64,000 nucleotides of DNA from Methanoregula sp. (GCA_039698055.1 JBDKTL010000017.1:22521-86520); one strand, 5' to 3'. Counted from the stretch's first letter, positions 7,277-20,748 are shown. The notes: generated by a model not told the origin, from the sequence alone. Numbers and translations are program-made.

Positions 7277-7492
7277 AGATCGGGCAGAAATTAAACAAAA
7301 ATCTTCGTTTATTGAATGAAAACCGCTTGTCAATTTCCTAATCCCGATAGCCGGAATAAAACTGGACGGTATCCAACAATTCATACCTTATGATCCGTTA
7401 TGGCTGGAGGGATTTTTTCCTGTTCAGGGTATTTGTTGCCCGGCAGATACAAAAGAAAAAACTACAAAACCAACAACGCCCCATCACAATCT

Positions 7493-8365
7493 ATGATTAT
7501 TTATCTTGATGGGAAGTACGTGCCCGAGGACCAGGCAAAAGTCTCTGTGTTCGATCATGGTCTCCTGTACGGTGACGGGGTTTTTGAAGGGATCCGGGCG
7601 TACAATGGCAGGATTTTCCGCTTAAAGGAGCATATGGACCGGCTCTATGATTCGGCAAAAACCATCGATATTCAACCTCCGATCTCAAAAGAAGAGATGA
7701 CCGAGGCAATATGCGAGACCCTTCGCAGGAATAATCTCAAGGATGCCTATATCCGTCCGATTATCACCCGTGGCATCGGTGACCTCGGGCTTGATCCCCG
7801 CAAGTGCCCGAAGCCTTCGGTCATCGTGATCTGTGTGACCTGGGGCGCGATGTACGGCGACCTGTACGAGAAAGGCCTCAAAGCCATTACGGTTTCCGTG
7901 CGGAGAAATCCGGCGGAATCGCTGCCGCCTAATGTCAAGAGCCTGAATTACCTGAATAATATTCTTGCGAAGATCGAAGCAAATTACAAAGGCGGCGACG
8001 AAGCGATCTTCTTTGATACCAACGGTTATGTTGCCGAGGGTTCCGGAGACAACCTCTATGTCGTTAAGAACGGCGAGATTCTCACGCCTCATACCATCAA
8101 CAATCTCCGGGGAATCACAAGGATGGTCGCCCTTGAGATTGCAGAATCGCTTGGCATTACCGTAAAAGAACAGAACCTCGGGTATTTTGACCTGTACACG
8201 GCTGACGAACTGATCTGTTCAGGTACTGCGGCGGAGCTGGCACCGATTACCTGGATCGATGGCCGGGTTGTCGGCACCGGAAAACCCGGCCCGGTTACAC
8301 GGCAGCTGATGGCCGGGTTCAGGACCGTCACCGAGAATGAAGGTTATCCCATTTACAAAAAATAA
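7493..8365 (+). CDS. ilvE: Branched-chain amino acid aminotransferase
   Basis: [25 protein letters not shown] and GTAAE motifs. Confidence 0.95.
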
Positions 8366-8506
8366 TTTCCCCCTCTTTTATGGAATAATTATTTTTTTAA
8401 TACCGGTAAATCCGGGGAATTTATTTTTCCGTACGTGCGATTTCACGCCCATGGTCTTGTTCCATAACCTATTTATGACGAGGGGTAAAATTAGTTAAAG
8501 CAACGC

Positions 8507-8581
8507 GCTGCTATAGTGTAGTCCGGCCAATCATGCGGGCCTTTCACGCCCGCGACTGGGGTTCGAATCCCCATAGCAGCA
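8507..8581 (+). tRNA. tRNA-Glu (anticodon TTC), no intron, CCA not encoded
   Basis: Acceptor stem GCTGCTA/TAGCAGC, anticodon arm CGGGC-CTTTCAC-GCCCG and T arm GGGG-TTCGAAT-CCCC. Confidence 0.95.
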
Positions 8582-8647
8582 TCTTCTTTTCAGACCAGAA
8601 TCCCCAAGGGTTTTCCAACGCATTCTCCCAGCGTCAGCTTAATCCAT

Positions 8648-9892
8648 ATGCACACGGATTTCGCCGGTGCAATGAGAAAAGGGATTGATCCTGCACCGAC
8701 CAGCCGAGACCGGGCTTTCCACTGTCAGAAAGCGGAGTATGCAGATCATTCTATCGACAATGCCATAGCGACAGATCGCCTCACACCGGAAGATGCCCAA
8801 TTGATCAGGGCATTCATCTCGGAACTGAAAGCTACCAAGGGGATCAGCACCGGAAGGGCGAACAAAATCATTTTCACGCTCATTACGTGGAGACGATTTC
8901 TTCCGCCCTACACGACAAACAGCATTACCGACATCTACCAGGGCATCAACAACATGAAAGATACGAGAGTTCAGGGCCGGCCCTACAAGCAGAACACCCA
9001 GAGGGATTTCCTGAACTTCATCAAACGCTTTTACCTCTGGATGATCAAGCACCGGTATTCCCCGCTTATGAAGGACGATATACGGGAGATCAAAGTGCCC
9101 CGTACAGACACAATGACTAAAACCGCTGAGATGATGCTGAGCGAAGATGAAGTCCATAAAATGATCGATGCGTGTATGAACTCACGTGACCGGGCACTTA
9201 TCGCAATGCTGTATGAGGGCGGCTTTCGTATCGAAGAGATTGGGACATTGACATGGGGCCAGATCAAAATCGATGATTATGGCATGATCATCAATACCAA
9301 CAAGAAAACCGAAAAGCCCCGGTACGTCCGGCTCGTAGCTGCTACACCCTATTTCGCAACGTGGCGGAACGATTACCCATATGCCATCGCTGCCGAGGGG
9401 TTGGTCTTCACGTCCCATAAACGCCTGCCGTTGCGTTACGAGGGGATCGCACTTCAGTTGAAAAAGATTGGAGCGCGCGCCGGTGTTAAGAAGCGGATCA
9501 CGCCGCATTTATTCCGGCATTCAAAAATCACGTCGATGGTTCAGCAGGGATATAACGAGACGATTATCAAAAAAATGATGTGGGGAAACATCCGGACGGG
9601 GATGTTCGAGACGTACTGCCATCTGACAGATACTGATGTTGACGATGAAGTCCTTTCCAAGCAGGGCATCAGGAGAAAGAACGAGAAGAAGCAGCGGGCT
9701 ATGGAGGCTCGCCAGTGTCCTCACTGTTCGACCGTGAATGCCCCAACCGATGAATACTGCCGCACCTGTGCCAAACCCCTTACTGCGGAAATTGACCTGT
9801 CAATGGAAGAGATCAAACGAGAGATTGAGAAGACCCCGGAATTCGCAAAAATTATGGAAATAATCCGGCACAATATTTCAGTTGCCGGATGA
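8648..9892 (+). CDS. Tyrosine recombinase/integrase with C-terminal Zn ribbon
   Basis: RDRAL..LYEGGFRIEE, HLFRHS and W..(ETY) catalytic motifs; CPHC..CRTC at the C-terminus; lies beside the tRNA. Confidence 0.92.
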   Translation: MHTDFAGAMRKGIDPAPTSRDRAFHCQKAEYADHSIDNAIATDRLTPEDAQLIRAFISELKATKGISTGRANKIIFTLITWRRFLPPYTTNSITDIYQGINNMKDTRVQGRPYKQNTQRDFLNFIKRFYLWMIKHRYSPLMKDDIREIKVPRTDTMTKTAEMMLSEDEVHKMIDACMNSRDRALIAMLYEGGFRIEEIGTLTWGQIKIDDYGMIINTNKKTEKPRYVRLVAATPYFATWRNDYPYAIAAEGLVFTSHKRLPLRYEGIALQLKKIGARAGVKKRITPHLFRHSKITSMVQQGYNETIIKKMMWGNIRTGMFETYCHLTDTDVDDEVLSKQGIRRKNEKKQRAMEARQCPHCSTVNAPTDEYCRTCAKPLTAEIDLSMEEIKREIEKTPEFAKIMEIIRHNISVAG

Positions 9893-10702
9893 ATTTTCTT
9901 TTTTTATATAGCGTTTTAATAGGGCATGGAGTTTATCCGGTTGAGTCCGGGTTGTTGTACCCATCCCCATAATAGAATCCAGAATCCGGTTGTTTTCAGT
10001 CGTCTCGTTTCCCATCATCATAAAGAGAAACATCCGAAGATCCCTTGATACAACTCCGTTCGGTTTGGTTTCCATCCAATCCTGAAATAAACAAAATCTG
10101 AACACTTCTAAAAGACGGTTATACGTACTTACTGCCTTGTCGGAATCGGGAGTAAGAGATAATCTTCGACACACCCATTGGATATTACTTGATGGAGTAT
10201 CCCACGAATAGAGCGTATCTTGGGTAACAGGGTTCAGGATGCAGAATTTGAAGAACGTGGGGGAGGCTTGTAACAGAAGGTGCAGGAGTTCCTTATTCTT
10301 CTCCTCACCTGCGAGAATCCGCTCATCAATAATCAGTTCACGGAGCCATGCACTTTCCCGGAATTTTGGGCGGAGTTCCTTGTAATAATCCATACCATAG
10401 CATACCGTTCCAAGGTGATCAAAATCCCGGAATAATCGATAGCCGGTTCCTTTTCGCCACCGTGATCCTTCCGGACGATAATCCTCAATCGCCTCGATAA
10501 CTCCCTCTTCCACGAGCGTATCCAGCTGCCTGCTGACATACCGGTACTTGTTATCGGTTGTCCCGCTAAAACCGCAATAGTCGGCAATCCCGCCGGTGTT
10601 TGCCACATCATTATCAAGCAAACACGCGACAATCAACTTCTTGATATCTCTTCTTGGTTCCTTGCCCTTTGTATTTTCACTCATATGCTCACGTCTCTCC
10701 AT
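9878..10702 (-). CDS. Putative winged-HTH transcriptional regulator of the element
   Basis: N-terminal wHTH-like pattern (IADYCG...VSRQLDTLVEEGVIE...YRL); convergent with the integrase. Confidence 0.6.
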   Translation of the reverse strand: MERREHMSENTKGKEPRRDIKKLIVACLLDNDVANTGGIADYCGFSGTTDNKYRYVSRQLDTLVEEGVIEAIEDYRPEGSRWRKGTGYRLFRDFDHLGTVCYGMDYYKELRPKFRESAWLRELIIDERILAGEEKNKELLHLLLQASPTFFKFCILNPVTQDTLYSWDTPSSNIQWVCRRLSLTPDSDKAVSTYNRLLEVFRFCLFQDWMETKPNGVVSRDLRMFLFMMMGNETTENNRILDSIMGMGTTTRTQPDKLHALLKRYIKKENSSGN

Positions 10703-10736
10703 TACTCCACAATATGGATAAACCTTGTGTAGTAAT
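10701..10736. promoter_or_regulatory. Operator-like inverted repeat at the start of the wHTH gene
   Basis: ATTACTCCACAA-N12-TTGTGTAGTAAT (11 of 12 positions match). Confidence 0.5.
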
Positions 10737-10936
10737 AGAAAAATTAACTTACGCCGGAGATCTTCGAAAGGATCGCCCTAAAATTATTGCAAATTGTGAT
10801 CCAATGAAGGGTCGATACAGCCATTTCTCAGAAAAAATTGCGATCTAAATAATCCGCATATCAGACTCAAAATGGGAAAATATGCCCTAAATGAGCCTTA
10901 TTTGGGATAAGGGTTAATGGGTAATTGTTGAGTCAC

Positions 10937-11089
10937 ATGCCAAAAATTACTCTGAAACAATTACAGCATCTGCCTGAACTCCATCGGCTCGTCTGCGAAC
11001 AGTTGATCTGGAAGGGATCATGGCAACTGGTCTTGGACGCCGATGAAAAAGCATCCGATCTTGATGCAATCCCCATCTCAACGAGGTGA
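10937..11089 (+). CDS. Small hypothetical protein (50 aa, below the ORF track cut-off)
   Basis: MPKITLKQLQHLPELHRLVCEQLIWKGSWQLVLDADEKASDLDAIPISTR; its end (GAGGTGA) doubles as the SD of the next gene. Confidence 0.55.
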   Translation: MPKITLKQLQHLPELHRLVCEQLIWKGSWQLVLDADEKASDLDAIPISTR

Positions 11090-11093
11090 ACCG

Positions 11094-11471
11094 ATGGGAA
11101 CAGGATTGCGCGGGTACGGATGGTACAAGTGGGACTTGCTGAAGGAGGTCTACTATGCGTTTGAAACTGCGGAATTTACCTACGCAGCAGCGGCCAAGCT
11201 TCCCGGGTTCGACAGAAAGACGTACATGTCTCTGTATTACGACGGGTTGATCACCAAAAAAGTCCAGGGGCGGCCGTCCAAATGGAAACTGAGCGAGGCT
11301 GCCATCAGATCAATTATCGGGTACAACCTGCCCGAGGACGTGGAGTGCGAACCGGAGATCAAACTCTCCGTCCCTCGCCGCTCCAAACGCGCTATACTAC
11401 ATGCCGAAGCATTTGTCGAACAGATCCTCGAAGCCGTTGAGTTTTTTTCAAAGCCGGAGGTGATATCATGA
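11094..11471 (+). CDS. Hypothetical protein with a wHTH-like region
   Basis: SD GAGGTGA before ATG 11094; FTYAAAA..LYYDGLITK...KWKLS pattern. Confidence 0.6.
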   Translation: MGTGLRGYGWYKWDLLKEVYYAFETAEFTYAAAAKLPGFDRKTYMSLYYDGLITKKVQGRPSKWKLSEAAIRSIIGYNLPEDVECEPEIKLSVPRRSKRAILHAEAFVEQILEAVEFFSKPEVIS

Positions 11472-11533
11472 AATGAGTGGCCAATTGACGATACGTTGGA
11501 TCGACATATGACAAGCGCGTAAAGGTGGTAATT

Positions 11534-11956
11534 ATGGAAGACAGCAAAAACAAACTAAAACTACAAGTCAACGATCTCGTTCTAATGAACGTCGTTGGCG
11601 TGGGAGAGGACGGGCCAATCTTTGGAGTCGTTGACCGGGTAGGTACAATGGAACTCCTTGATGAGGAGGCCGTTAAGTCTCCGATACTGGAGAATCCAAG
11701 CGAACAGGCAACGGAGAACATCCCGGAGGTTGAAATGCCGGGAAACGAGGGGATTTCTGACGTGAATGCCTCGGTAATTGCAGAACTGGAAGCCCGGCGG
11801 GCTGCTCTGGATGCTGCGATTCAGGAGTTGAAGAAGGAGGGCGTTGCATATCTTGATCCCACCCCAATTCAAGCCGAAGCTACAACACCACAGTTAGCTA
11901 CCGAGCGAGGGGATGATAATCCTAAAAATGCAATGGTTCGCAGGATACAAGGATAA
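11534..11956 (+). CDS. Hypothetical acidic protein with a coiled-coil segment
   Basis: Open frame containing AELEARRAALDAAIQELKK. Confidence 0.55.
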   Translation: MEDSKNKLKLQVNDLVLMNVVGVGEDGPIFGVVDRVGTMELLDEEAVKSPILENPSEQATENIPEVEMPGNEGISDVNASVIAELEARRAALDAAIQELKKEGVAYLDPTPIQAEATTPQLATERGDDNPKNAMVRRIQG

Positions 11957-12108
11957 TGGGAATGGGCAACAATCAAAACATATTTTTGGATTATATGATA
12001 ATAGAGAGAGTTTCTTAATCTCTCGCTGTATGTTTATTGCTTATAGTCTTTATATATTTGTCCAATTTAATTCATAACAATTATCATTCGCTGGCCCAAT
12101 TCAGGATT

Positions 12109-12702
12109 ATGTTCTGCTACAAATGCGGGGCCGAAAATAAAAACGATGCGACTTTTTGCAGTAAGTGTGGCACGGCCATAGGTACATCAGGTTCTTTGCC
12201 ATCACCGCAGACAAACCACGAACCACTTGAAAAATACAGATTACCTGAGATATCTGACGCGATTTTTGACTCCCTCACCCAGGAACAACAGAGATCATAT
12301 AACCGTAAAGTTCTGGCAAAGAGCGAATACAACCTAGCGAAGGAGAATTATGATACATCAATGAGTCTGGTTGGACCACTCATTTGTATTATCTGTGGTT
12401 TGCTCCTTGCCATTCTCGAAATATACTTAAGTATACTCGTTATAATTGGAATCATCTGGGCGTTCTACCGTGTTGCATCGCGATCTCAGGCATACCAACG
12501 GTTGAAGGACACTGAAGCAGAACTCAAGGCCGCGATTGATGCCGATGCTTCTCAAGCAAGGATGATTTCGCAGACTCCAAGTGTACCCTGTACATTCGAT
12601 AAGGATTTCTGGAAGAACATTACAGTCATCATTATTGTACTAGCTGCGCTCTTCACCATTGTATTTCTAATGATGCTCTACGCACAGGGAAAATTATCCT
12701 GA
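12109..12702 (+). CDS. Zinc-ribbon domain membrane protein
   Basis: MFCYKCG.EN..DATFCSKCG followed by 2-3 hydrophobic segments. Confidence 0.75.
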   Translation: MFCYKCGAENKNDATFCSKCGTAIGTSGSLPSPQTNHEPLEKYRLPEISDAIFDSLTQEQQRSYNRKVLAKSEYNLAKENYDTSMSLVGPLICIICGLLLAILEIYLSILVIIGIIWAFYRVASRSQAYQRLKDTEAELKAAIDADASQARMISQTPSVPCTFDKDFWKNITVIIIVLAALFTIVFLMMLYAQGKLS

Positions 12703-12917
12703 TGGTTGAGGTTCACGCGTCCCGATTCATCAGTCCCCTTGGCTATACCAAAGAGACTGAGATCATTAGAATAACCACAGTAATGTTTGTAGGACAAAAA
12801 CTACATATTTCCACTAATGATCAATATTCTTTCATTAGACAATAGTTTGCAATGACACGAGACATTTTTTTATATTTATGAAGAGAATAGAGAAACAATT
12901 GATTCCCGAGGGATTTT

Positions 12918-13448
12918 TTGTCTTACGATACCTTGTCATTTTTTTCTGCATCGTTGTCTTGCGGCGACTCAACATTTTCAATTATACTCAACGCTCTTGT
13001 TACCTTATTGGGTGCTGCTATTGGCGCGATAATCACGGTATATTTAACAGACCATATCACAAAAAGATCTGAAACGAAAACCAGAAATCAAGTTGCTCAT
13101 AGTCTGCTATTGAAGGTCAAGTCAATAGATGAGAGGTTAAGACATATCCCAACGATTATATCGCTGAATAATTTTAATACAGAAAATCCATTTTTTACAC
13201 GTGTCGAAACAGTTCTTCCAAATATGTCTCTACTAGATTTAGAGACAATATCTCTTTTGAATCGTCTTGAACGCGAGCTTTTCGTTTTAGAAGAGTTCCG
13301 TCAAAAAGTTGTTAATAAAGAATATTATAATAACCATCTCAACGATTTAAATCACGATCTTACTTTTTCTATGATCAATCATGTTACGAAAGCAAAACAG
13401 TATGTGATTGAACTTATTTCTAAATTGATGGAAATTACAATGAACTGA
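12918..13448 (+). CDS. Hypothetical protein with N-terminal membrane anchor
   Basis: ALVTLLGAAIGAIITVYL transmembrane segment; AT-rich; start codon uncertain. Confidence 0.55.
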   Translation: MSYDTLSFFSASLSCGDSTFSIILNALVTLLGAAIGAIITVYLTDHITKRSETKTRNQVAHSLLLKVKSIDERLRHIPTIISLNNFNTENPFFTRVETVLPNMSLLDLETISLLNRLERELFVLEEFRQKVVNKEYYNNHLNDLNHDLTFSMINHVTKAKQYVIELISKLMEITMN

Positions 13449-13563
13449 AATTATTACGGCTATGTAGAAATGCTAAGTTTACTGACGTAAACCAGTGACC
13501 ATAAGTTCTAAGGTACAGTGCCTCCTTCCATTGTTATGCAACACGACATAAGGAGACAAAATA

Positions 13564-13780
13564 ATGTCAGCAAACTGGTATATGAGGTTTGTTGAATTAT
13601 CCTCTTGACTGATCCTTGATTCACGGATTCCCCTGTTCTCGTCGAAGTTTTCGAGAAAAACATATACCCATCACAAGTTACTCATTCTTCTTCTTTTGAA
13701 AGAGTACTTGTCAGAGGATTACCGTGACGCTGCAGAACTCACAGAGATCATGGACTCACTCCGGGAGAAGATCCATTCTT
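13564..13780 (+). pseudogene. Transposase N-terminal remnant (IS4/IS5 superfamily-like)
   Basis: Reads MSANWYMRFVELSS*LILDSRIPLFSSKFSRKTYTHHKLLILLLLKEYLSEDYRD; upstream SD AAGGAG; in-frame TGA at 13606; truncated at a poly-T run. Confidence 0.7.
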
Positions 13781-13915
13781 TTTTTTTTAAAGAAATTCAA
13801 ATTAAAAGTTGGCAAACTATGTCTTTTTACACTCTTGTTAGTGGGAGCGCATTAATTGATTTTTTATATAACACACTGTTGACTGTGAAAAATATTAAAA
13901 TATAGAATAGACTTA

Positions 13916-15061
13916 TTACAAAAGTGCCGTTGACCTGCTTAAGTGAACCTGAGCATTATTCAGGTCCGTTATTCCAGAATAACTGAGGCTTGTACTACCG
14001 TCATGATCTCCAGCATTGTATTTGTCCACAGATAGGACGACTTTATCTGCCGCACTTCGCACGTCATTGAGATATAATATGTATTCTTGTGCGGCTGCTT
14101 TTTTTGTTCCTGCTCCATTGGTCAATTGCTTCATTTCTGGGAGGTTTTGGTCAATATAATTCCGCAATAATACTGCATTAAGACCTGCTTTTAGGTAATC
14201 TCCATTCGTTAAAGAATCTCCAATAATTCTCACAGTTGGGGACATCCAAGTATTCATCTCAGACATTTTATCAAGTGCGGCCTTCTCCCCACTAATGGTG
14301 GTTATCGTAGTTGGCTTTGGATTGGACTCTATCACCGTTGAAGCTGCCGCCATATCATCCTGATATGGATAGTATAGGAATGTTGGGAAATCATCAGTAA
14401 AAATCGTATTTTTCTCCGGTATGTATGTGTAATTATAATGCCCCCCGTTAAGTTCAGTGGTTATATACGAATTACCTCCTTGTGCATGCCAAGTCCCATA
14501 ACCTTCCCATGTCCCTTTATCAGGAGTGTGCATAATCCAAGATTGTGTCCCATTCGCATCAAACCGAACCTTCACATCAGTACCTGAGGCAGAAGCCAAC
14601 CATGTACCAATTATCGGGTCAGTTTTTACTGGGATATATGTCGGTTCTGGCGTGGGTGTGGGAATAACACGTTCATCTATGAAATGTACTTTATAAGAAG
14701 TATCATCAATAATTGTTGCCATTGCGACAACATCGAATGTTTTGGCGTCATTAGGTATGAAAAATTTTACCGCACCACTCTGTCCTTTTGTTATATAGGG
14801 TGTCCTTAACGTTTGTGTAGAGACTTTGACATTATTTTTATCATAGAAATCAACCATAACCGCAAACTGACCCTCTACAGACGAAAGATCCTTAACCGTA
14901 ACTTTAAGGATTGATCCTGAAATCTCCGTGTCTGTTAAAGCCAGTGATGGTGTTGTATCTTCAGTCGATAGACTAGTAGATGATGAATTATCGCTGCAAC
15001 CAGCTACGAAGACAATTAATATTAAAGAAATGCTTAAAACTGCGATATTTTGGATTTTCAT
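13916..15061 (-). CDS. Lipoprotein (hypothetical surface protein)
   Basis: Signal peptide with lipobox VAGC, a PTPTP linker and a DPIIGTW beta-domain motif. Confidence 0.75.
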   Translation of the reverse strand: MKIQNIAVLSISLILIVFVAGCSDNSSSTSLSTEDTTPSLALTDTEISGSILKVTVKDLSSVEGQFAVMVDFYDKNNVKVSTQTLRTPYITKGQSGAVKFFIPNDAKTFDVVAMATIIDDTSYKVHFIDERVIPTPTPEPTYIPVKTDPIIGTWLASASGTDVKVRFDANGTQSWIMHTPDKGTWEGYGTWHAQGGNSYITTELNGGHYNYTYIPEKNTIFTDDFPTFLYYPYQDDMAAASTVIESNPKPTTITTISGEKAALDKMSEMNTWMSPTVRIIGDSLTNGDYLKAGLNAVLLRNYIDQNLPEMKQLTNGAGTKKAAAQEYILYLNDVRSAADKVVLSVDKYNAGDHDGSTSLSYSGITDLNNAQVHLSRSTALL

Positions 15062-15283
15062 TAACAGCCACCCCAATAGTTCTATTTGAGAAAAAGACTT
15101 ATATTACGATTAATATTGTGTTTTTGTATGAGCAATATTTCTTGTAATTGGAAACGCTCTTGTTTTTGGCGTTTAACCGGAAATTAATGCCGCCGATAGG
15201 TACATTTCGGGTCGGGGGCAGTTCCCCGGGGGTGGTGAGGGCATTGATTCCACTACTAGTGAAATAACAATTTAAAAACTAAT

Positions 15284-16045
15284 TTAATCCAAATCAGTTA
15301 CTGCAATCCAAGTACAGCGGCATCCTTCATGGGCTTCTGCATCTATTTTTGCAGCTTCCTCAAGAGTGAAAATTTTTCCGTCTAATGCTGCACACTTATC
15401 ACAGGTCTTCTCATCACGAGCCACCAAACGTTCCAATTTTTTAATCCCAGTTTTTTTGTACCGATCTCTTGCCTCTGAATTAATAGACTTCATCGTTATC
15501 GTGTTAATTAATGATCTCGCACGTTCGAGGTTCACACCATCGACTTGTTCGACAATCTCATGACTAATTTGGCCCAGATTTTTTTCGAACCGGATGCCAT
15601 CGGCAACAATTTTTTTTACTTTTTTTTCGGATTCAATAGACAGTCCTTTTAGTTGGTTTGAATTGCCTTCAATTTGATTCGCAAGTTTCTCAGAGAGTTG
15701 TTGTTTTACTTCCGGAGTGGCCCCTAATCTGATACTGCCATGAGAATTTCCATTTTTTACAAACCATTGTCTCTCTAATTCGTCCATCTGGTCCTCTTTT
15801 ATCAAAACTTTCCTATTATCAAGGGGCCGTGTTTTACTTCGGATAAAATTATGGCAGTTTGGACATTGTTTCTTTTTTAAGGGCATTTTATCAAATTTAA
15901 AATCACAATACGGGCATATTGGTTCAGTATTACCAATCGCGGTAAATTCAATGTCGGAGATCTTTTTTGGGTTATTCCGAGTATCTTGAGATCCATCAGT
16001 ATTTTGTTCAGTTGTAATTCCCCGAAACCAATTTAAAATGCCCAT
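15284..16045 (-). CDS. Zn-ribbon fused to a phage minor head protein (MuF/SPP1 gp7-like) domain
   Basis: CPYC..CPNC at the N-terminus; C-terminal RARSLINT...YKKTG...DEKTCDKCAALDGKIF...HEGCRC. Confidence 0.75.
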   Translation of the reverse strand: MGILNWFRGITTEQNTDGSQDTRNNPKKISDIEFTAIGNTEPICPYCDFKFDKMPLKKKQCPNCHNFIRSKTRPLDNRKVLIKEDQMDELERQWFVKNGNSHGSIRLGATPEVKQQLSEKLANQIEGNSNQLKGLSIESEKKVKKIVADGIRFEKNLGQISHEIVEQVDGVNLERARSLINTITMKSINSEARDRYKKTGIKKLERLVARDEKTCDKCAALDGKIFTLEEAAKIDAEAHEGCRCTWIAVTDLD

Positions 16046-16165
16046 AACACACCATTCATTTTCATCTTAAGAACCGAAATATCTGGTTAATCTAACTGCC
16101 TTGCTCTTCGATCTTGGCATTCTGTTTATCAACCTGTTTCTGAAGTATAGTATTTTCAATGATAC

Positions 16166-16274
16166 GATAAAATTGGCGATCAAGATATGAGAAATAGACC
16201 TGACCTAATGAACAGTTGAATACCTATACGATTTTGGTTTTTTATTGACCGTATCTCTCCGTATCTCTCACGTC
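16166..16274. repeat. 109-bp module, copy A
   Basis: Gap-free match to 17316-17424, about 77% by manual count. Confidence 0.8.
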
Positions 16275-16614
16275 AGAGTGATCACATAAAAATTTCATGC
16301 ACTTTTACCTGCATTTACTATGGTTCTAAGGAAATCACAAAAAAAATATACGGAGCAATACGGTTTTCTCCATTCCGAGTATAGGTTCAGAAAAAAAGCA
16401 GATGTCAAAAGAGTTAATATGATCGCAAGCTGATGGTAATCTGAGCCTAAGGAGGTTCACATTTATGAAAAATGACCAGAATCAGAGGGATTCTGGTTCT
16501 GAAAAAAATCGCTCCATAGCAGCATTTTAACACTGATGGTTCAATGCTCTTTTGTGTGATTGCCTTATCACTTTCATAAGCAATTGTCTACAACTCACAA
16601 TGAAACATACTCGC

Positions 16615-17202
16615 TTAACCTGATCTATTTTGTTGATAGCAGTCAACTCTGACAGGTTGTGGAACGGGTATGAATATGGGTATTGAAAGATCTGTTGAAT
16701 AATCAAGCACTATTTTCTGGGAGTAGGAATTATTCTCAGCATCACAATATTGAATCTCTACTTCAAGTTTGCCTCTTCGTCTTTCTATTGAGGTCCATTC
16801 CCCACAGACAGAAATTCGTTCATTTGTGCCTAATGTGTATAAGTAAAACGATGATTCCGGAGATCCATCAGAACGAGTTTTGATAGTAACTCTTGTTGCA
16901 ACTGGACCATAATTGGATAAATATAAAGTTTTACCTCCTGTACGAGGGTAATCATCACTTTGAACAGATAAAACCGGTTTAATCGCAGATTTTCTTGTTT
17001 CATTATATTGCTTCTCTAACATTTTTAGAGAGTCTTCATTTAGAAGTCTGATTTTTTTGGTTTCAATAAGGTAACCATATGTAACTATTACCAACACTAC
17101 AGTAATGAATACAGAACATCCACTTAATAGGATTTCTTCAATTGGCATACGAATTAAATAATTTTTTAGGGATATAATATCTGGTATCATTAGATCTTTC
17201 AA
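16615..17202 (-). CDS. Hypothetical single-TM protein
   Basis: TM segment (VFITVVLVIVTYGYL) followed by KPVL..LSNYGPVA; start uncertain. Confidence 0.65.
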   Translation of the reverse strand: MKDLMIPDIISLKNYLIRMPIEEILLSGCSVFITVVLVIVTYGYLIETKKIRLLNEDSLKMLEKQYNETRKSAIKPVLSVQSDDYPRTGGKTLYLSNYGPVATRVTIKTRSDGSPESSFYLYTLGTNERISVCGEWTSIERRRGKLEVEIQYCDAENNSYSQKIVLDYSTDLSIPIFIPVPQPVRVDCYQQNRSG

Positions 17203-17315
17203 GAAAAATATGATAGTTCATCAACATATTTTGCTAAAAGATGACTTCTAATATTGCATTTTCCAAAACTCTTTTGTCACATTTCCTTCAAGTGTGAGAT
17301 CATTGTCAATGGCGG

Positions 17316-17424
17316 GATAAAATTGGCGATTTGGACCTTATAAATAACCGTGATCTAATGGACAGTTGAATATGCGTAAGATTTTGATCTGGTATCGACC
17401 GTATCTCTCCATATATTTCACGTC
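17316..17424. repeat. 109-bp module, copy B
   Basis: Shares GATAAAATTGGCGAT, ACAGTTGAATA and GACCGTATCTCTCC with copy A. Confidence 0.8.
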
Positions 17425-17727
17425 GTAATCCCGATAAGAAAAAACCATACAATTTTTGTTGACATTAGTCATACTGACAGTTTGTCCAAATCCACTGCAA
17501 AAGTCATCTCTTTTAAATGCATTCATCTTCCACATCCAGTTCATAATCGTGAAACCCCGATATCTGTCGTTAGTCATGGCCCGGGACAGCCCGGATTATC
17601 AGGAATTGCTGACGTGACTGCGAAAGGATTTGAATCTTAAGTTTTTTTTCATATGCGATTAACATTTTTTAATTGAACTAAAATGCATATATGCTGGAAC
17701 GAGAGTACATATCTGTAGGGATTTTAT

Positions 17728-17919
17728 ATGGAAAGTGACGTTTTCAAAGAGCTGCGGTTAATCCGGCAGGATCTCAAATATATCCGGGCCCATATGGTTG
17801 ACCAGGATATGATTCTTTCTCCTGAAGATAAAGCGCTTCTTGACAAAAGCCGTCAGGAACTCCATGCGGGGAAAACCCGGTCTCTCGATGATGTGATGAG
17901 AGCACGAAATGGTGCTTGA
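17728..17919 (+). CDS. Putative antitoxin (RelB-like partner)
   Basis: 63 aa with ILSPED.ALL...ELHAGKTRSLDDV; overlaps the downstream RelE-like gene. Confidence 0.7.
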   Translation: MESDVFKELRLIRQDLKYIRAHMVDQDMILSPEDKALLDKSRQELHAGKTRSLDDVMRARNGA

Positions 17920-18169
17920 GATTGCCATCGGGCCTAAGGCAGACCGTTTTTTGCTGAGTGTAAACCAACAGATTTTTGATCGGCTGATCAAAAAAATCAG
18001 GGAACTGGCGGTTAATCCCCAGCCTCGTGGTGCCAAAAAAGTTCTCAGCGAGGAAGGGGTTTTCAGGATATGAGTTGGAACGCACCGGATTCTCTATTCA
18101 CTTGAGGAAAATAAGCACGTTCTTCTTATCGTGAATATCGACAAGCGTTCCCGTGTATACAAAAGATAA
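17909..18169 (+). pseudogene. RelE/ParE-family toxin with internal stop
   Basis: MVLEIAIGPKADRFL..IKKIRELAVNPQPRGAKK..VFRI*VGTHRILY..IDKRSRVYKR; TGA at 18071-18073. Confidence 0.85.
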
Positions 18170-18424
18170 TCCATATTATTTATTGCCAAAACGCAAATCA
18201 TCCGAAATTTGATTATCTCATATCAGATAGGGAAAATACTCTACGATTTATTGGTTCTTTTTTAGAATTACGGGCGGCTGTTTAAGGACCCGCAAACAGG
18301 CCCGTAATCGGCTGTGAGATCGAATAGCGGTAATCCAGTTCCCCGGCAAACACTATCCCCGTCGTAGATTGTGACAACCGGACGGTCCCTTCGGGCTCGC
18401 AGGAACGATTGGATCGCACAAAAG

Positions 18425-18892
18425 GGCGAATTATCGATCGTCATTTCCAGACAACGCCCATTTTGGGGAATCCAGGCGAAAATACGGCAGATGATTGCCT
18501 GAAAAAGAACCCTAACAGACCCTTTTGGACGGCCGATCGCATGCCGGGTTGAAGGTACGTGGAGCACAATGAAAAGAAGGCCTGTTTTGAGGCAATGTTC
18601 CGGGGTCGTCTCGTCGGACACCGACGTGAATTTTATCCGGGTACGCATTGTTCCAGGATCGATCATACCCTCACTGACAGGTACGATCGTCGATTCCCTG
18701 CGGATCAATGCTCCGACGGTGATTCCCGTGCCGTGACGACAACCGGCTGATCGTGGTTCTGAATTTAATGTAAAAAATGGCGAATTATCTATCGTCATTT
18801 CCAGACAACGCCCATTTTGAAGAATTCAAACGAAAATACGGCAGGTAATCGTCCGAAAAAGAACCCTAACAGACCCTTTTGGACGGCCGATC
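18425..18892. repeat. Tandem duplication with 354-bp period; 114-bp cores at 18425-18538 and 18779-18892
   Basis: 11 mismatches in 114 nt by manual count, with weaker similarity on both sides. Confidence 0.9.
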
Positions 18893-19047
18893 TCAAGGAT
18901 TAACGGGCTGGAGCAGGGGGAAACCAAAGAAACCCCTGTTTTTATGGTTCGGCTCTATGGCACTCCGGGATCCTGTCCGTGTTCACCCGATTTTTTTTAA
19001 ACCAATGTAAGATTTACGAAAAAAAAATAAAAAAAATGTCCCCGGTT

Positions 19048-20670
19048 TTATGGGGATACGGTCGGTGTCGCCGTGACTGTGGTATTTGTTGCGGGGGGTT
19101 CTGTTGTGATGACGGTTGTAGCTTTTGTTGTCGGAACCGGTGTCGGTGTGGGTGTTTTCAGCACCGCTTCGAATTCAATGCTTCCTTTGGGGACAACAGT
19201 TGAATCGCGCTTGATCAGGACGCCGTCCTTGTACAGTTCAATAACAAGTTCATCCCCGGACCCGTCCGTCTTTTTGATGGATGCGTCGACCGGCCCGTTC
19301 ACGGTGGGAATCTGGTAGAAATGTTCACCGGTTTCTGTTACCGGTGTCTGCGCTCCCGGTGTACCGTACGTCCCGGTAAATGTCTGCGGGTAACTGATTT
19401 TGATCCAGATGCCGGACTGGGGAATAAGCAAGGTCGGTTGCGCCGTCGCCACGGTGGTAGTAATCGTTGCCTGTGTCGGATGCGGTGTTGGCGTGGGAAT
19501 GGTGGTTGCAACGGTTGTGCCGGTCGGAACGATCGTCACATTTGTAGAATCCGGATGTTTCTGCAGAGACTGGGAATAGATAACGATACCGCCAATGACC
19601 AGGAGAATGACGATGGCAATGCCGATAATCGCCATGCGCCGTGGTTTTCTGGTGGACGGTGGTGACGGAACCGGTGGCAGGGGGGTTTGTGGCGGGGTTC
19701 CGGGTTGTGCAGCCGGTGCTGGTTCCGCCGGCGTTACGGATCCTTCATTTGCGGCGTTTATGATTGACGCAGCTGCCAGTTCAATCGCAGACGGCGAGAT
19801 CGTTTCCTGCTGCCCATCAGGAACCGGCGATGTCTCCGGGACTGGCACGAACGGGAGCGGCTCGCGGACCGGCTCCGGTACGATAGGCCGGGATCCCGCC
19901 CGGGGGACCGAATCTTCAATAAGCGGTTCGATGGAATGGATGATCTGTTCAATGGGACGCTCCTTGCGTTCGAACACCGGAGCGCTCATCGCCGGAACCG
20001 GGTCCCTGATAGTCCCGAGAACCTTTTCCGGCTCGGCGGGTTTTGTGCTTTGTGCCGGAACCCTGGTCCCGCACCGGTTGCAGAATGTCGATTCCGGAGG
20101 AATACGGTTGCCGCACCGTGGACAGAATGACCCTTGTGGCAGGGATGTGGTTTCTATGGGCTGGGGATAGACCGGGCTTTTCTCAATGATCTTCTTGATG
20201 GGCCGGGAAATCTCGATCTTCTTTTTTCCTGAAGTGCTTGCGACACCAATCGATGACGGGGCGGGTGTCCCGTACTTCTGCGCAGATGCAACTTCCGGTG
20301 CCGGCTCTGCCGGTTTTTCTTCTTTTGGCTGCATCAGTGCGATGCGCTCTTTGAGCAGCGCGGCAAAGTCATCGCATTCGCGTTTTCGCTCCCCGGTCTG
20401 GCGCGAGAACGTGAGAATCATCTGACGGGTCTTGCCGGTTTCAGTCCCGATTGAGAGGGTGAGGATTGAATCGCGTATTGCATTCTCACCGGTTTCGACT
20501 TTCTGGATAGTCGCAAGCTGGATATTCTGCTGGGGGATGACATTTTTCTTGTTATCGACAAGAAGCAGCCGCTTGGTTGTCAGTATTGCGTCAAAGGGAA
20601 TGGATTTAACTTTGACATTTTTTGTTTCCAGGATGATTGACTCATCACTGTAGAGATCGGTATAGCCCAT
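19048..20670 (-). CDS. Membrane protein with PH-like N-terminus, Zn ribbon, Pro-rich linker, TM and Thr-rich extracellular part
   Basis: LTTKRLLL motif, FCPRCG..FCNRCG and one TM segment. Confidence 0.75.
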   Translation of the reverse strand: MGYTDLYSDESIILETKNVKVKSIPFDAILTTKRLLLVDNKKNVIPQQNIQLATIQKVETGENAIRDSILTLSIGTETGKTRQMILTFSRQTGERKRECDDFAALLKERIALMQPKEEKPAEPAPEVASAQKYGTPAPSSIGVASTSGKKKIEISRPIKKIIEKSPVYPQPIETTSLPQGSFCPRCGNRIPPESTFCNRCGTRVPAQSTKPAEPEKVLGTIRDPVPAMSAPVFERKERPIEQIIHSIEPLIEDSVPRAGSRPIVPEPVREPLPFVPVPETSPVPDGQQETISPSAIELAAASIINAANEGSVTPAEPAPAAQPGTPPQTPLPPVPSPPSTRKPRRMAIIGIAIVILLVIGGIVIYSQSLQKHPDSTNVTIVPTGTTVATTIPTPTPHPTQATITTTVATAQPTLLIPQSGIWIKISYPQTFTGTYGTPGAQTPVTETGEHFYQIPTVNGPVDASIKKTDGSGDELVIELYKDGVLIKRDSTVVPKGSIEFEAVLKTPTPTPVPTTKATTVITTEPPATNTTVTATPTVSP

Positions 20671-20748
20671 AGTACCACATTCTTTACTATAGTTGTGCGC
20701 TATCCTCTCCAAATAAGTATTTGTTTTAAGAACGTGCCAAAAAAAGGT

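Follow-up and report, generated by a model that had tools for sequence, protein, structure and literature searches.

Positions 8571-16525 of a 64,000-nucleotide stretch of DNA from Methanoregula sp. (GCA_039698055.1, JBDKTL010000017.1:22521-86520), hereafter the window, to which all coordinates refer, form a genuine and complete integrative element of 7.9 kb that has been recently mobile. The element is built of four parts: a Xer-like tyrosine integrase, a conserved module, a swappable AT-rich cargo, and a conserved right arm of 0.3 kb. Considered together, the observations are probably best explained by an intact, small, and modular site-specific element, which is inserted at a tRNA-Glu(UUC) gene, has spread horizontally, and holds an integrase frame spanning the attachment (att) site of its circular form, attP. 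The relatives used for comparison belong to the genus Methanoregula; G000 denotes the genome of the window, and designations of the G0xx and L0xx type, together with STB_131, denote genomes or contigs of the relatives.

Boundaries of the element

The target of integration is the tRNA-Glu(UUC) gene at 8507-8581 (plus strand), which is the sole tRNA gene found by ARAGORN in the window and scores 60.5 bits against the Rfam tRNA model; between 8300 and 19200, nothing besides this tRNA was recognized by Rfam. The last 11 bases of the tRNA plus one further base constitute the attL core, CCATAGCAGCAT (8571-8582, plus strand), and the same 12 bp are found as the attR core at 16514-16525 (plus strand). 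The tRNA, whose end belongs to the att core, is restored by the element's own copy of the core and is intact. This core occurs exactly twice in the window, at these two positions; shuffled controls gave a mean of 0.23 matches with at most one mismatch, and two of 100 shuffles reached two matches. No repeated tRNA fragment longer than the core was found in the window.

Both ends are also defined by the relatives. In the STB_131 contig (L066), homology to the window begins exactly at 8571, and what lies upstream is the end of a 19.7-kb island rather than a tRNA. In G031 and the metagenome contig L053, homology stops exactly at 16525. Furthermore, G005 has, downstream of its tRNA-Glu, a sequence similar to the 28 bases to the right of 16525 (40 nt at 87.5% identity, core included). 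The initial annotation of this DNA had proposed a complete and discrete tRNA-Glu element of about 7.9 kb with these ends, and a core common to attL and attR. Both proposals are borne out by the perfect 12-bp repeat, present only at the two ends, and by the homology breaks in three relatives. The possibility that relatives carry the same genes with no boundary at 16525, raised in the same annotation, is contradicted by G031 and L053, where the boundary is present.

Horizontal spread at a tRNA-Glu hot spot

The left part of the element is a conserved module of 3.3 kb, comprising the integrase gene, a gene for a 274-aa protein, and three small open reading frames (ORFs), o54, o125, and o143. The Methanoregula metagenome-assembled genome (MAG) G031 has a copy at the same tRNA, where positions 7451-11833 of the window align at 83% identity; the integrase is 91% identical, the 274-aa protein 81%, o54 85% (by tblastn), o125 80%, and o143 76%, and the cargo is unrelated. 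The alignment resumes over 16242-16525 at 86%, and a second integrase, 53% identical, starts beyond it. This copy, G031-A, measures 6.2 kb and is flanked by a 13-bp repeat. Another copy, L053-A, of 7.0 kb, matches 8569-12696 at 86% and 16212-16525 at 84%. All the core ORFs are intact in three to four copies and are under purifying selection (ratios of nonsynonymous to synonymous divergence, dN/dS, of 0.07-0.44). Between G000 and G031, synonymous divergence (dS) is 0.22-0.59 in the element genes, compared to 1.56 and 1.68 in the flanking host genes ilvE and cbiA, respectively. The copies of the element are thus much younger than the split between their hosts, which demonstrates horizontal spread between Methanoregula species.

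The site itself is well conserved, tRNA-Glu following ilvE in 31 of 31 related genomes, in 14 of which the DNA downstream of the tRNA was compared. A zinc-ribbon membrane-protein gene, zn554 (19048-20712 in the window), lies downstream in nine of these 14 loci and is followed by serS in eight of the nine. The gap between tRNA-Glu and zn554 amounts to 136-1313 bp in seven of the 14, about 5.1 kb in G009, about 5.9 kb in G005, and 10,466 bp in the window; zn554 was not found in the remaining five stretches, two of which are under 2.5 kb long. In the 14 loci, no homologue of any ORF from the integrase to o195 (a gene to the right of attR) was detected at E<=1e-5. Given these short gaps and the lack of homologues, everything between 8583 and about 18940 represents an insertion, the 7.9-kb element accounting only for the part nearest the tRNA. 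Elements and remnants are piled up here over 10.4 kb at a tRNA-Glu integration hot spot, and the element comes first in the series.

The integrases found at this same tRNA are 95, 91, 57, 54, 53, 39, and 38% identical to that of the element. Integrases of 53-57% identity adjoin tRNA-Glu or tRNA-Thr genes in G031, G044, STB_131, G111, G077, and a Lac Pavin MAG, and each of their elements holds a larger divergent protein, as well as weak o54- and o125-like ORFs. Some of these elements are large islands. The one in STB_131 (19.7 kb) carries UbiB-like, radical-SAM, reductase, MMPL, and TetR genes. Another, G031-B (22.8 kb; L047 86-12834; G031:C4), is located at the same tRNA-Glu with a 53% identical integrase, and encodes two double-GTPase proteins, GrpE, two Hsp70 proteins (one of them fused to VWA), and GAP1, a gene content that looks like that of a putative GTPase-centred conflict system. 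For the tRNA-Thr element of G077, a size of 4.1 kb was rejected as a product of chance, the 10-mer repeat in question being located inside a GC-rich coding region. No viral structural genes were detected in those 53-57%-integrase elements that were mapped end to end, nor in the three complete copies of the present element. The initial annotation had considered that related elements might be full proviruses, of which this one would be a deletion derivative; the relatives sharing the core module or a 53-57% integrase are instead non-viral elements or islands, and its other reading, that of a minimal island, fits.

A viral element is nevertheless present at the hot spot in L053, where a fragment of a head-tailed provirus (9094-14456 of that contig) stands in tandem with the copy of the element and shares its core. 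Its integrase, 38% identical, is at the end adjoining the shared core and reads away from it; the fragment also encodes a divergent protein of 199 aa, a P-loop protein of 479 aa, and a large terminase (phrog_2, 3e-17; phrog_5902, 1e-30), and has an o54-like ORF. Among the hot-spot elements examined, the large terminase was found only in this one.

Elsewhere in G000, three more integrases with the same zinc ribbon, 40-45% identical to that of the element, adjoin tRNA-Leu(CAA) (contig C30, about 75798-76913), tRNA-Gln(UUG) (C16, 21955-23136), and tRNA-Thr(CGU) (C38, 23745-24818), so this genome has at least four tRNA-integrated elements.

The integrase and its reading frame across the attachment site

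The integrase gene (8648-9892, plus strand) encodes 414 aa from the first ATG. The protein matches PF00589 with an E-value of 2.6e-23 and the NCBIfam XerA/C/D-like integrases with scores under the curated cut-offs. In eight related integrases that were aligned, residues R194, K220, H287-x-x-R290, W312, and Y323 are invariant, as are the four cysteines of a C-terminal CxxC..CxxC zinc ribbon. The retention of the catalytic motifs, already noticed in the initial annotation, is confirmed by the domain match and by this invariance, and dN/dS is as low as 0.07-0.09. PF16795 (Phage_integr_3) was not among the Pfam matches at E<=0.1, the motif being HxxR and not R..KxxR..Y.

Between attL and the integrase gene lies a leader, or integrase-proximal arm (8583-8647, plus strand), with the box ACCAGAATCCCC at 8594-8605; it is open in the integrase frame, and 64 of its 65 bases are identical in G031. 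At the other end, the right, attR-proximal arm (16212-16513, plus strand) is 84-86% identical to G031 and L053 even though it is non-coding. It contains a distal box, CCGTATCTCTCCGTAT, at about 16249, a TATA-like sequence, TTAATATG, at 16414-16421, and a Shine-Dalgarno (SD) sequence, AAGGAGGT, at 16449-16456, followed by an ATG at 16465, 16 codons, and the core, with a hairpin (ACCAGAATC/GATTCTGGT) at 16475-16497. Both the right arm and the leader are functional DNA, since their conservation exceeds that of synonymous sites in the neighbouring genes (dS 0.2-0.6).

In the integrated state, the ORF of the right arm ends two codons past the core. The integrase frame, for its part, is open from 8522, that is, from the ATG at 8648 back through the core, and is in the same phase as the right-arm ATG. 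When the arms are joined in silico as they would be in a circle, a single ORF results that is 42 codons longer (456 aa), and this holds for G000, G031-A, and L053-A. The succession of SD, ATG, 16 codons, and core is found in all five mapped right arms, which belong to two integrase lineages. A pattern search for this arm design in 108 Methanoregula genomes returned 14 matches in 10 genomes, compared to none in the reversed control; among 12 arm-like matches, 11 have lengths of 60, 63, or 66 nt, which keep the frame. The beginnings of the right-arm peptides are similar, reading MKK-x-WN..DSNQ.. in two lineages and MK(N/K)(D/G)QN..DSG.. in the present one. On the other side of the core, the leader is open back through the core in 8/8 elements with an integrase at least 53% identical, and in 11/11 sequences despite lengths of 28, 30, 33, 36, or 37 codons, whereas it is closed, within 27-281 nt of the tRNA, in 4/4 elements with 39-45% identical integrases. 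Natural tandem arrays show the same continuity, the arm of the upstream element giving the downstream integrase an unbroken long ORF (L046 15869-17218, 449 aa; L066 8788-10041).

Since the right-arm frame is kept in 11 of 12 arms and in 11 of 11 leaders, it is suggested that the integrase ORF is complete only after excision, in the circle, a proposal for which we consider the chances about even. Integration into tRNA-Glu or tRNA-Thr would then cut the gene, and the arm of a tandem neighbour could complete the next integrase. According to this model, the right arm would supply a promoter-like box, a strong SD, the ATG, and the first 16-18 codons of the integrase; the att core would be read as S-I-A-A, and the leader would continue in frame into the integrase. 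Integration would sever the body of the integrase from its expression signals and from about 20 initial codons, and excision, or the right arm of a neighbouring element in a tandem array, would rebuild the full ORF, from which a long form of the integrase could be translated.

Several observations weigh against this reading. The ratio of nonsynonymous to synonymous differences (pN/pS) in the leader is 0.5-1.5, compared to 0.11-0.28 in the body of the integrase, and the synonymous sites of the leader are more conserved than those of the body in all seven pairs compared. The leader is thus conserved at the DNA level, for which DNA-binding sites fit as well as, or better than, coding. The conservation of leader and arm probably reflects sites bound by proteins, the ACCAGAATCCCC box and the hairpin being examples, and the peptide, if it is made, may be a loosely constrained linker. 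The N-terminal "exon" has only seven of 17 residues common to the two best-mapped lineages and overlaps the conserved hairpin. Among the 12 arms, one measures 62 nt and does not keep the frame. Moreover, an internal ATG or GTG is retained in most copies at the point where the homology starts, so that a shorter integrase may suffice. Owing to the relatedness of the copies compared, the counts overstate their independence. No 16525-8583 or 8582-16526 joint was found among the assembled Logan contigs of four sequencing runs, which is not evidence against excision, as such contigs drop rare variants. Finally, no replication protein was identified in the element.

In both runs of the source sample (X1 and X2), one unbranched contig spans 8554-18465. 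The depth of this contig, which covers the whole insert of 9.9 kb, is below that of the flanks, at 281 compared to 335 and 334 in X1 and at 167 compared to 210-221 in X2, figures that refer to contig depth and not to copy number, and that come from two runs of one study. In X1, another contig shares the tRNA and 11 bases with the window and then diverges into sequence like that of an unoccupied flank. The lower depth and this diverging contig may be due to island-free relatives in the same sample. The two other runs (X3 and X4) contained only short, diverged pieces.

The conserved module

Next to the integrase, and on the opposite strand, the 274-aa core protein (9878-10702, minus strand) is intact in 4/4 copies, with a dN/dS of 0.20-0.26. 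Only four homologues were found among 5.8 billion proteins, and there was no match in Pfam, PHROG, NCBIfam, or PADLOC. Its predicted structure has a mean confidence (pLDDT) of 44.6, residues 20-80 alone being moderately confident and helical; a profile search of the PDB gave E>=0.35 at best, and the ESM Atlas returned unnamed archaeal clusters alone, with scores of about 0.9. One of the homologues is named as ArsR-family by JGI. A winged helix in the N-terminal part is weakly indicated by the structural model and by this name, and the protein is a candidate regulator or replication initiator.

The remaining core genes are arranged in a run on the plus strand, with SD sites GAGGTGA and AGGTGGT. 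The first of them, o54 (10925-11089; likely start ATG 10937), is 30-48% identical by tblastn to ORFs in the 53%-integrase elements, the L053 provirus, and PtaU1.Bin051. Weak o54-like ORFs come after the integrase in several integrase lineages, and o54 is a candidate directionality factor. The second, o125 (11094-11471; SD GAGGTGA), is a small DNA-binding protein for which ATG 11094 is taken as the start, since, in 24 representative homologues (E<=1e-3), the alignment starts at query residue 18-22 in 23 cases and at residue 23 in the other. Its AlphaFold model (pLDDT 81.7) has a winged-helix fold, and the top Foldseek matches are MarR-family regulators and the centromere-binding proteins TubR and AspA (probability 0.99; E 0.014 and weaker); dN/dS is 0.36-0.44. 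The third, o143 (11525-11956; likely start ATG 11534), is an acidic protein with a dN/dS of 0.30-0.43, and is 74-76% identical in G031 and L053. The GC content of the core module is 0.43-0.52.

The initial annotation had described this region as a winged-helix gene divergent from an SD-coupled operon of small ORFs, in a layout like that of cI and cro. The divergent arrangement and the SD sites are as described, and the Foldseek comparison that it had recommended for the small ORFs, run for o125, showed a winged helix there; for the divergent 274-aa protein such a fold is only weakly indicated, and the likeness to cI/cro does not go beyond the layout.

The cargo

The cargo begins after o143 with a TATA-like sequence of its own, TTTATATA, at 12049, and is AT-rich (GC 0.32-0.41 over 12001-17500). 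Its first gene (12037-12702, plus strand; likely start ATG 12109) encodes a zinc-ribbon membrane protein (Zn_Ribbon_1, 1.2e-6), which is 82% identical in L053 and absent from G031-A. It is followed by a gene for a 176-aa protein with an N-terminal membrane segment (12918-13448, plus strand) and a weak match to a PHROG holin (E 0.0015). Positions 13456-13776 (plus strand) are, according to nucleotide matches, the truncated 5' end (320 bp) of an insertion sequence (IS) of roughly 1.0 kb with a DDE_Tnp_1 transposase. Of the 108 Methanoregula genomes searched, dozens have related copies with 75-84% nucleotide identity; where the IS is complete, it encodes a DDE transposase of 306 aa. G000 has four partial copies, two of them at contig ends. 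The ORF at 13696-13905 is therefore a transposase remnant and not a gene, as it is located inside the truncated IS.

On the minus strand, a gene at 13916-15076 encodes a 386-aa putative lipoprotein, whose signal peptide and VAGC lipobox were read from the sequence. It has no family match and resembles a lipoprotein of L053 over 95 aa (39% identity). The last cargo gene (15284-16045, minus strand) encodes a 253-aa fusion of an N-terminal zinc ribbon to a C-terminal MuF/SPP1-gp7 domain, residues 141-246 matching Phage_Mu_F (PF04233, 8.5e-10) and the SPP1 gp7 domain (TIGR01641, 8.5e-15). It is the only MuF protein in G000, and no full-length homologue was detected in 301 Methanomicrobiales genomes; 29 of these gave matches, always to one half of the fusion at a time. 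The zinc-ribbon head of this protein (residues 30-105) also starts proteins of 97-603 aa, with other C-termini, in more than 20 Methanomicrobiales genomes, and it may serve variable proteins as a common module for targeting or DNA binding.

The same core module is accompanied by other cargo in the other copies: a DnaJ-TPR protein in G031-A and two lipoproteins in L053-A. Of the features that the initial annotation had assigned to the cargo, low GC, the zinc-ribbon membrane protein, and the MuF domain were recovered, and the lipobox comes from the reading of the sequence; the low GC does not end at 16525, staying at 0.32-0.37 to about 17500. A defensive function for the cargo, also proposed there, was not substantiated, as none of eight proteins matched PADLOC. 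Its statement that no primase, MCM, terminase, capsid, or conjugation gene is recognizable stands, since no element ORF matched these families in Pfam, PHROGs, or NCBIfam.

Alternative explanations

Three other explanations were considered. The element could be a helper-dependent virus satellite, comparable to phage-inducible chromosomal islands (PICI), P4, or pSSVi (the last of which is an integrating archaeal satellite), that is excised and packaged with a head-tailed Methanoregula virus, the MuF protein aiding entry into the head. The size of the element and the layout of an integrase plus a divergent regulator fit such a satellite, as do the gene for a MuF/SPP1-gp7 domain, the transfer between species without transfer genes of its own, and the tandem position of the L053 copy next to a terminase-bearing element with a 38% identical integrase. 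However, the MuF gene is part of the variable cargo and is missing from both other complete copies, and neither a small terminase, nor a capsid-size or replication gene, nor a large terminase, portal, or major capsid protein was found in the element with Pfam and PHROGs. Terminase_6N and Phage_capsid (HK97) had no match anywhere in the G000 genome, which is 93% complete. Likewise, the virome search recommended in the initial annotation revealed no close relatives in IMG/VR: no relative of the 274-aa protein was detected by single-sequence and alignment scans, and the best integrase match (37%) comes from a 5.1-kb contig with no other gene in common and no terminal repeat. The relatives with integrases of the same clade include islands of 20-23 kb and are too varied in size for a single capsid. 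The PICI-like satellite envisaged in the initial annotation is therefore quite unlikely: the MuF gene occurs as cargo in this copy alone, genes for packaging, capsid remodelling, or replication were not found, and no helper was detected. The element is not a provirus, and no evidence for a satellite was found.

Somewhat less improbable, albeit still unlikely, is an integrative plasmid whose circle replicates by itself; the 274-aa protein, as a winged-helix initiator, would act on an origin located either in the right arm or between the divergent genes. Apart from the integrase gene, no conserved gene is larger than the one for this protein, which evolves under purifying selection, and the right arm is conserved and has a hairpin. 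Winged-helix proteins have been proposed as initiators for the smallest archaeal cryptic element (PMC6563490), and Rep-Arvir, one such family, has been demonstrated to act as a rolling-circle initiator (PMC13107129). The 274-aa protein nonetheless has no match to DUF7845/Rep-Arvir or to any replication family in Pfam and NCBIfam, and no confident structure; no free circular contig was recovered, the relatives being chromosomal or short fragments, and the contig depth of the element is below that of its flanks in X1 and X2, which is weak evidence. Most improbable of all would be a decayed provirus or an immobile island remnant with a 12-bp repeat that is the fossil of an old insertion. The truncated IS in the cargo, the neighbouring debris with its ParE pseudogene and decayed arm, and an assembly graph without an alternative junction would agree with decay, but both cores are perfect, the core genes are intact and under purifying selection, the divergence between copies in different species is much lower than that between the hosts, and three complete copies lack any viral structural gene. 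An intact, small, and mobile integrative element is hence retained as the preferred reading.

Older insertions to the right of attR

The DNA at 16526-18940 is outside the 7.9-kb element and represents older debris of the hot spot, absent from relatives with short spacers between tRNA and zn554. It contains the gene for a 195-aa membrane protein (o195; 16615-17202, minus strand) and a decayed copy of the right arm, 17302-17456 being 71-76% identical to 16152-16306 and located 1150 bp further right; this decayed arm was left behind by an older member of the family. The debris parts are ordered alike in L053, except that its outer arm is intact and its inner core has degenerated. Further right, a toxin-antitoxin pair (17728-18169) consists of a putative antitoxin of 63 aa and a toxin of the ParE family, which is interrupted by an in-frame TGA (18071-18073) and matches Pfam ParE_toxin at 2.5e-10 when the TGA is read through with X. 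Two 122-nt repeats (18420-18541 and 18774-18895) are 89% alike; shorter matches to them occur on the G000 contigs C2, C21, and C48, and the Logan assembly breaks there. Beyond this debris, the zn554 product, a zinc-ribbon, Pro/Thr-rich membrane protein, is a conserved neighbour of tRNA-Glu in the genus, with several diverged paralogues in G000 on contigs C34, C48, C37, and C49.

Significance

To our knowledge, mobile elements of methanogens outside the gut and outside hyperthermophiles have barely been described. The present family is defined by base-exact ends, a small conserved core, a cargo bay, and movement between species, and its tRNA-Glu hot spot also receives 20-kb metabolic and GTPase/Hsp70 islands, as well as a terminase-bearing provirus. 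We also know of no genetic tools for Methanomicrobiales, and the 3.6-kb core (left module plus right arm), with its known attB, would be a natural starting point for an integration vector in this order. If the split of the integrase is real, it would represent a second and independent origin of the archaeal "suicidal integrase" design, in a Xer-like PF00589 enzyme of mesophilic methanogens, and the self-interrupting design would not be restricted to one hyperthermophile-associated family. It would also provide the element with a built-in sensor of its integrated or free state, and with a simple integration/excision switch.

Comparison with known systems

The element family was not found in the literature on Methanoregula integrases, tRNA elements, and suicidal integrases of mesophiles or methanogens, as far as titles and the openings of abstracts tell; supplementary lists may include Methanoregula. 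PICI, P4, phage-inducible chromosomal minimalist islands (PICMI), and pSSVi/pSSVx share with it a small size, an integrase, an adjacent regulatory module, and the lack of capsid genes. Unlike phage satellites, the present elements have no conserved packaging or capsid-hijack gene, neither a virome occurrence nor a helper was found for them, and sizes within the integrase clade vary from about 6 to 23 kb. A methanogen satellite would be notable, since pSSVi and pSSVx from Saccharolobus are given in the preprint 10.1101/2025.02.15.638363 as the only archaeal satellites known before it.

In the SNJ2 provirus of Natrinema, excision joins the ends into a functional transcription unit that includes the integrase gene (PMC13107129). 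In both cases, the physical state of the element would set gene expression. However, SNJ2 is a virus, and its rebuilt unit is, in that same account, the Rep-Arvir (DUF7845) replication operon, whereas the integrase ORF itself would be rebuilt here; DUF7845/Rep-Arvir had no Pfam match in the 274-aa protein or its 335-439-aa counterparts.

A parallel for the integrase is provided by the suicidal integrases of the SSV type, in which the recombination site is located within the integrase frame, as is proposed here, so that an N-terminal piece is cut off from the catalytic part upon integration; related integrases of the same cell, or a neighbouring element, could compensate for this (PMC8371274). 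That family (PF16795, with an R..KxxR..Y signature) is described in the same review as monophyletic and tied to hyperthermophilic archaea. The integrase analysed here is not a member, being a Xer-like PF00589 enzyme with an HxxR motif from a mesophilic methanogen genus. Furthermore, only about 20 codons and the expression signals would be split off in the present case, an internal start usually remaining, and this split is deduced from the reading frames.

As a whole, the element belongs with the cryptic integrated elements (CIE) defined for Thaumarchaeota (Krupovic et al. 2019, PMC6563490), which are a class by exclusion, without signature genes, the smallest described, of 2.6 kb, holding an integrase, a winged-helix protein, and two unknown proteins. 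The present element shares with CIE the tyrosine integrase, the tRNA target with its short att repeats, the variable cargo, and the presence of winged-helix alongside hypothetical proteins, and, like them, has no recognizable replication, capsid, or conjugation genes. Unlike them, it belongs to another phylum and another integrase lineage, and it has a defined, conserved five-gene module and right arm that recur in several species. The element thus fits the CIE kind, to which the family, its modular build, and the putative circle dependence of its integrase gene add new details.

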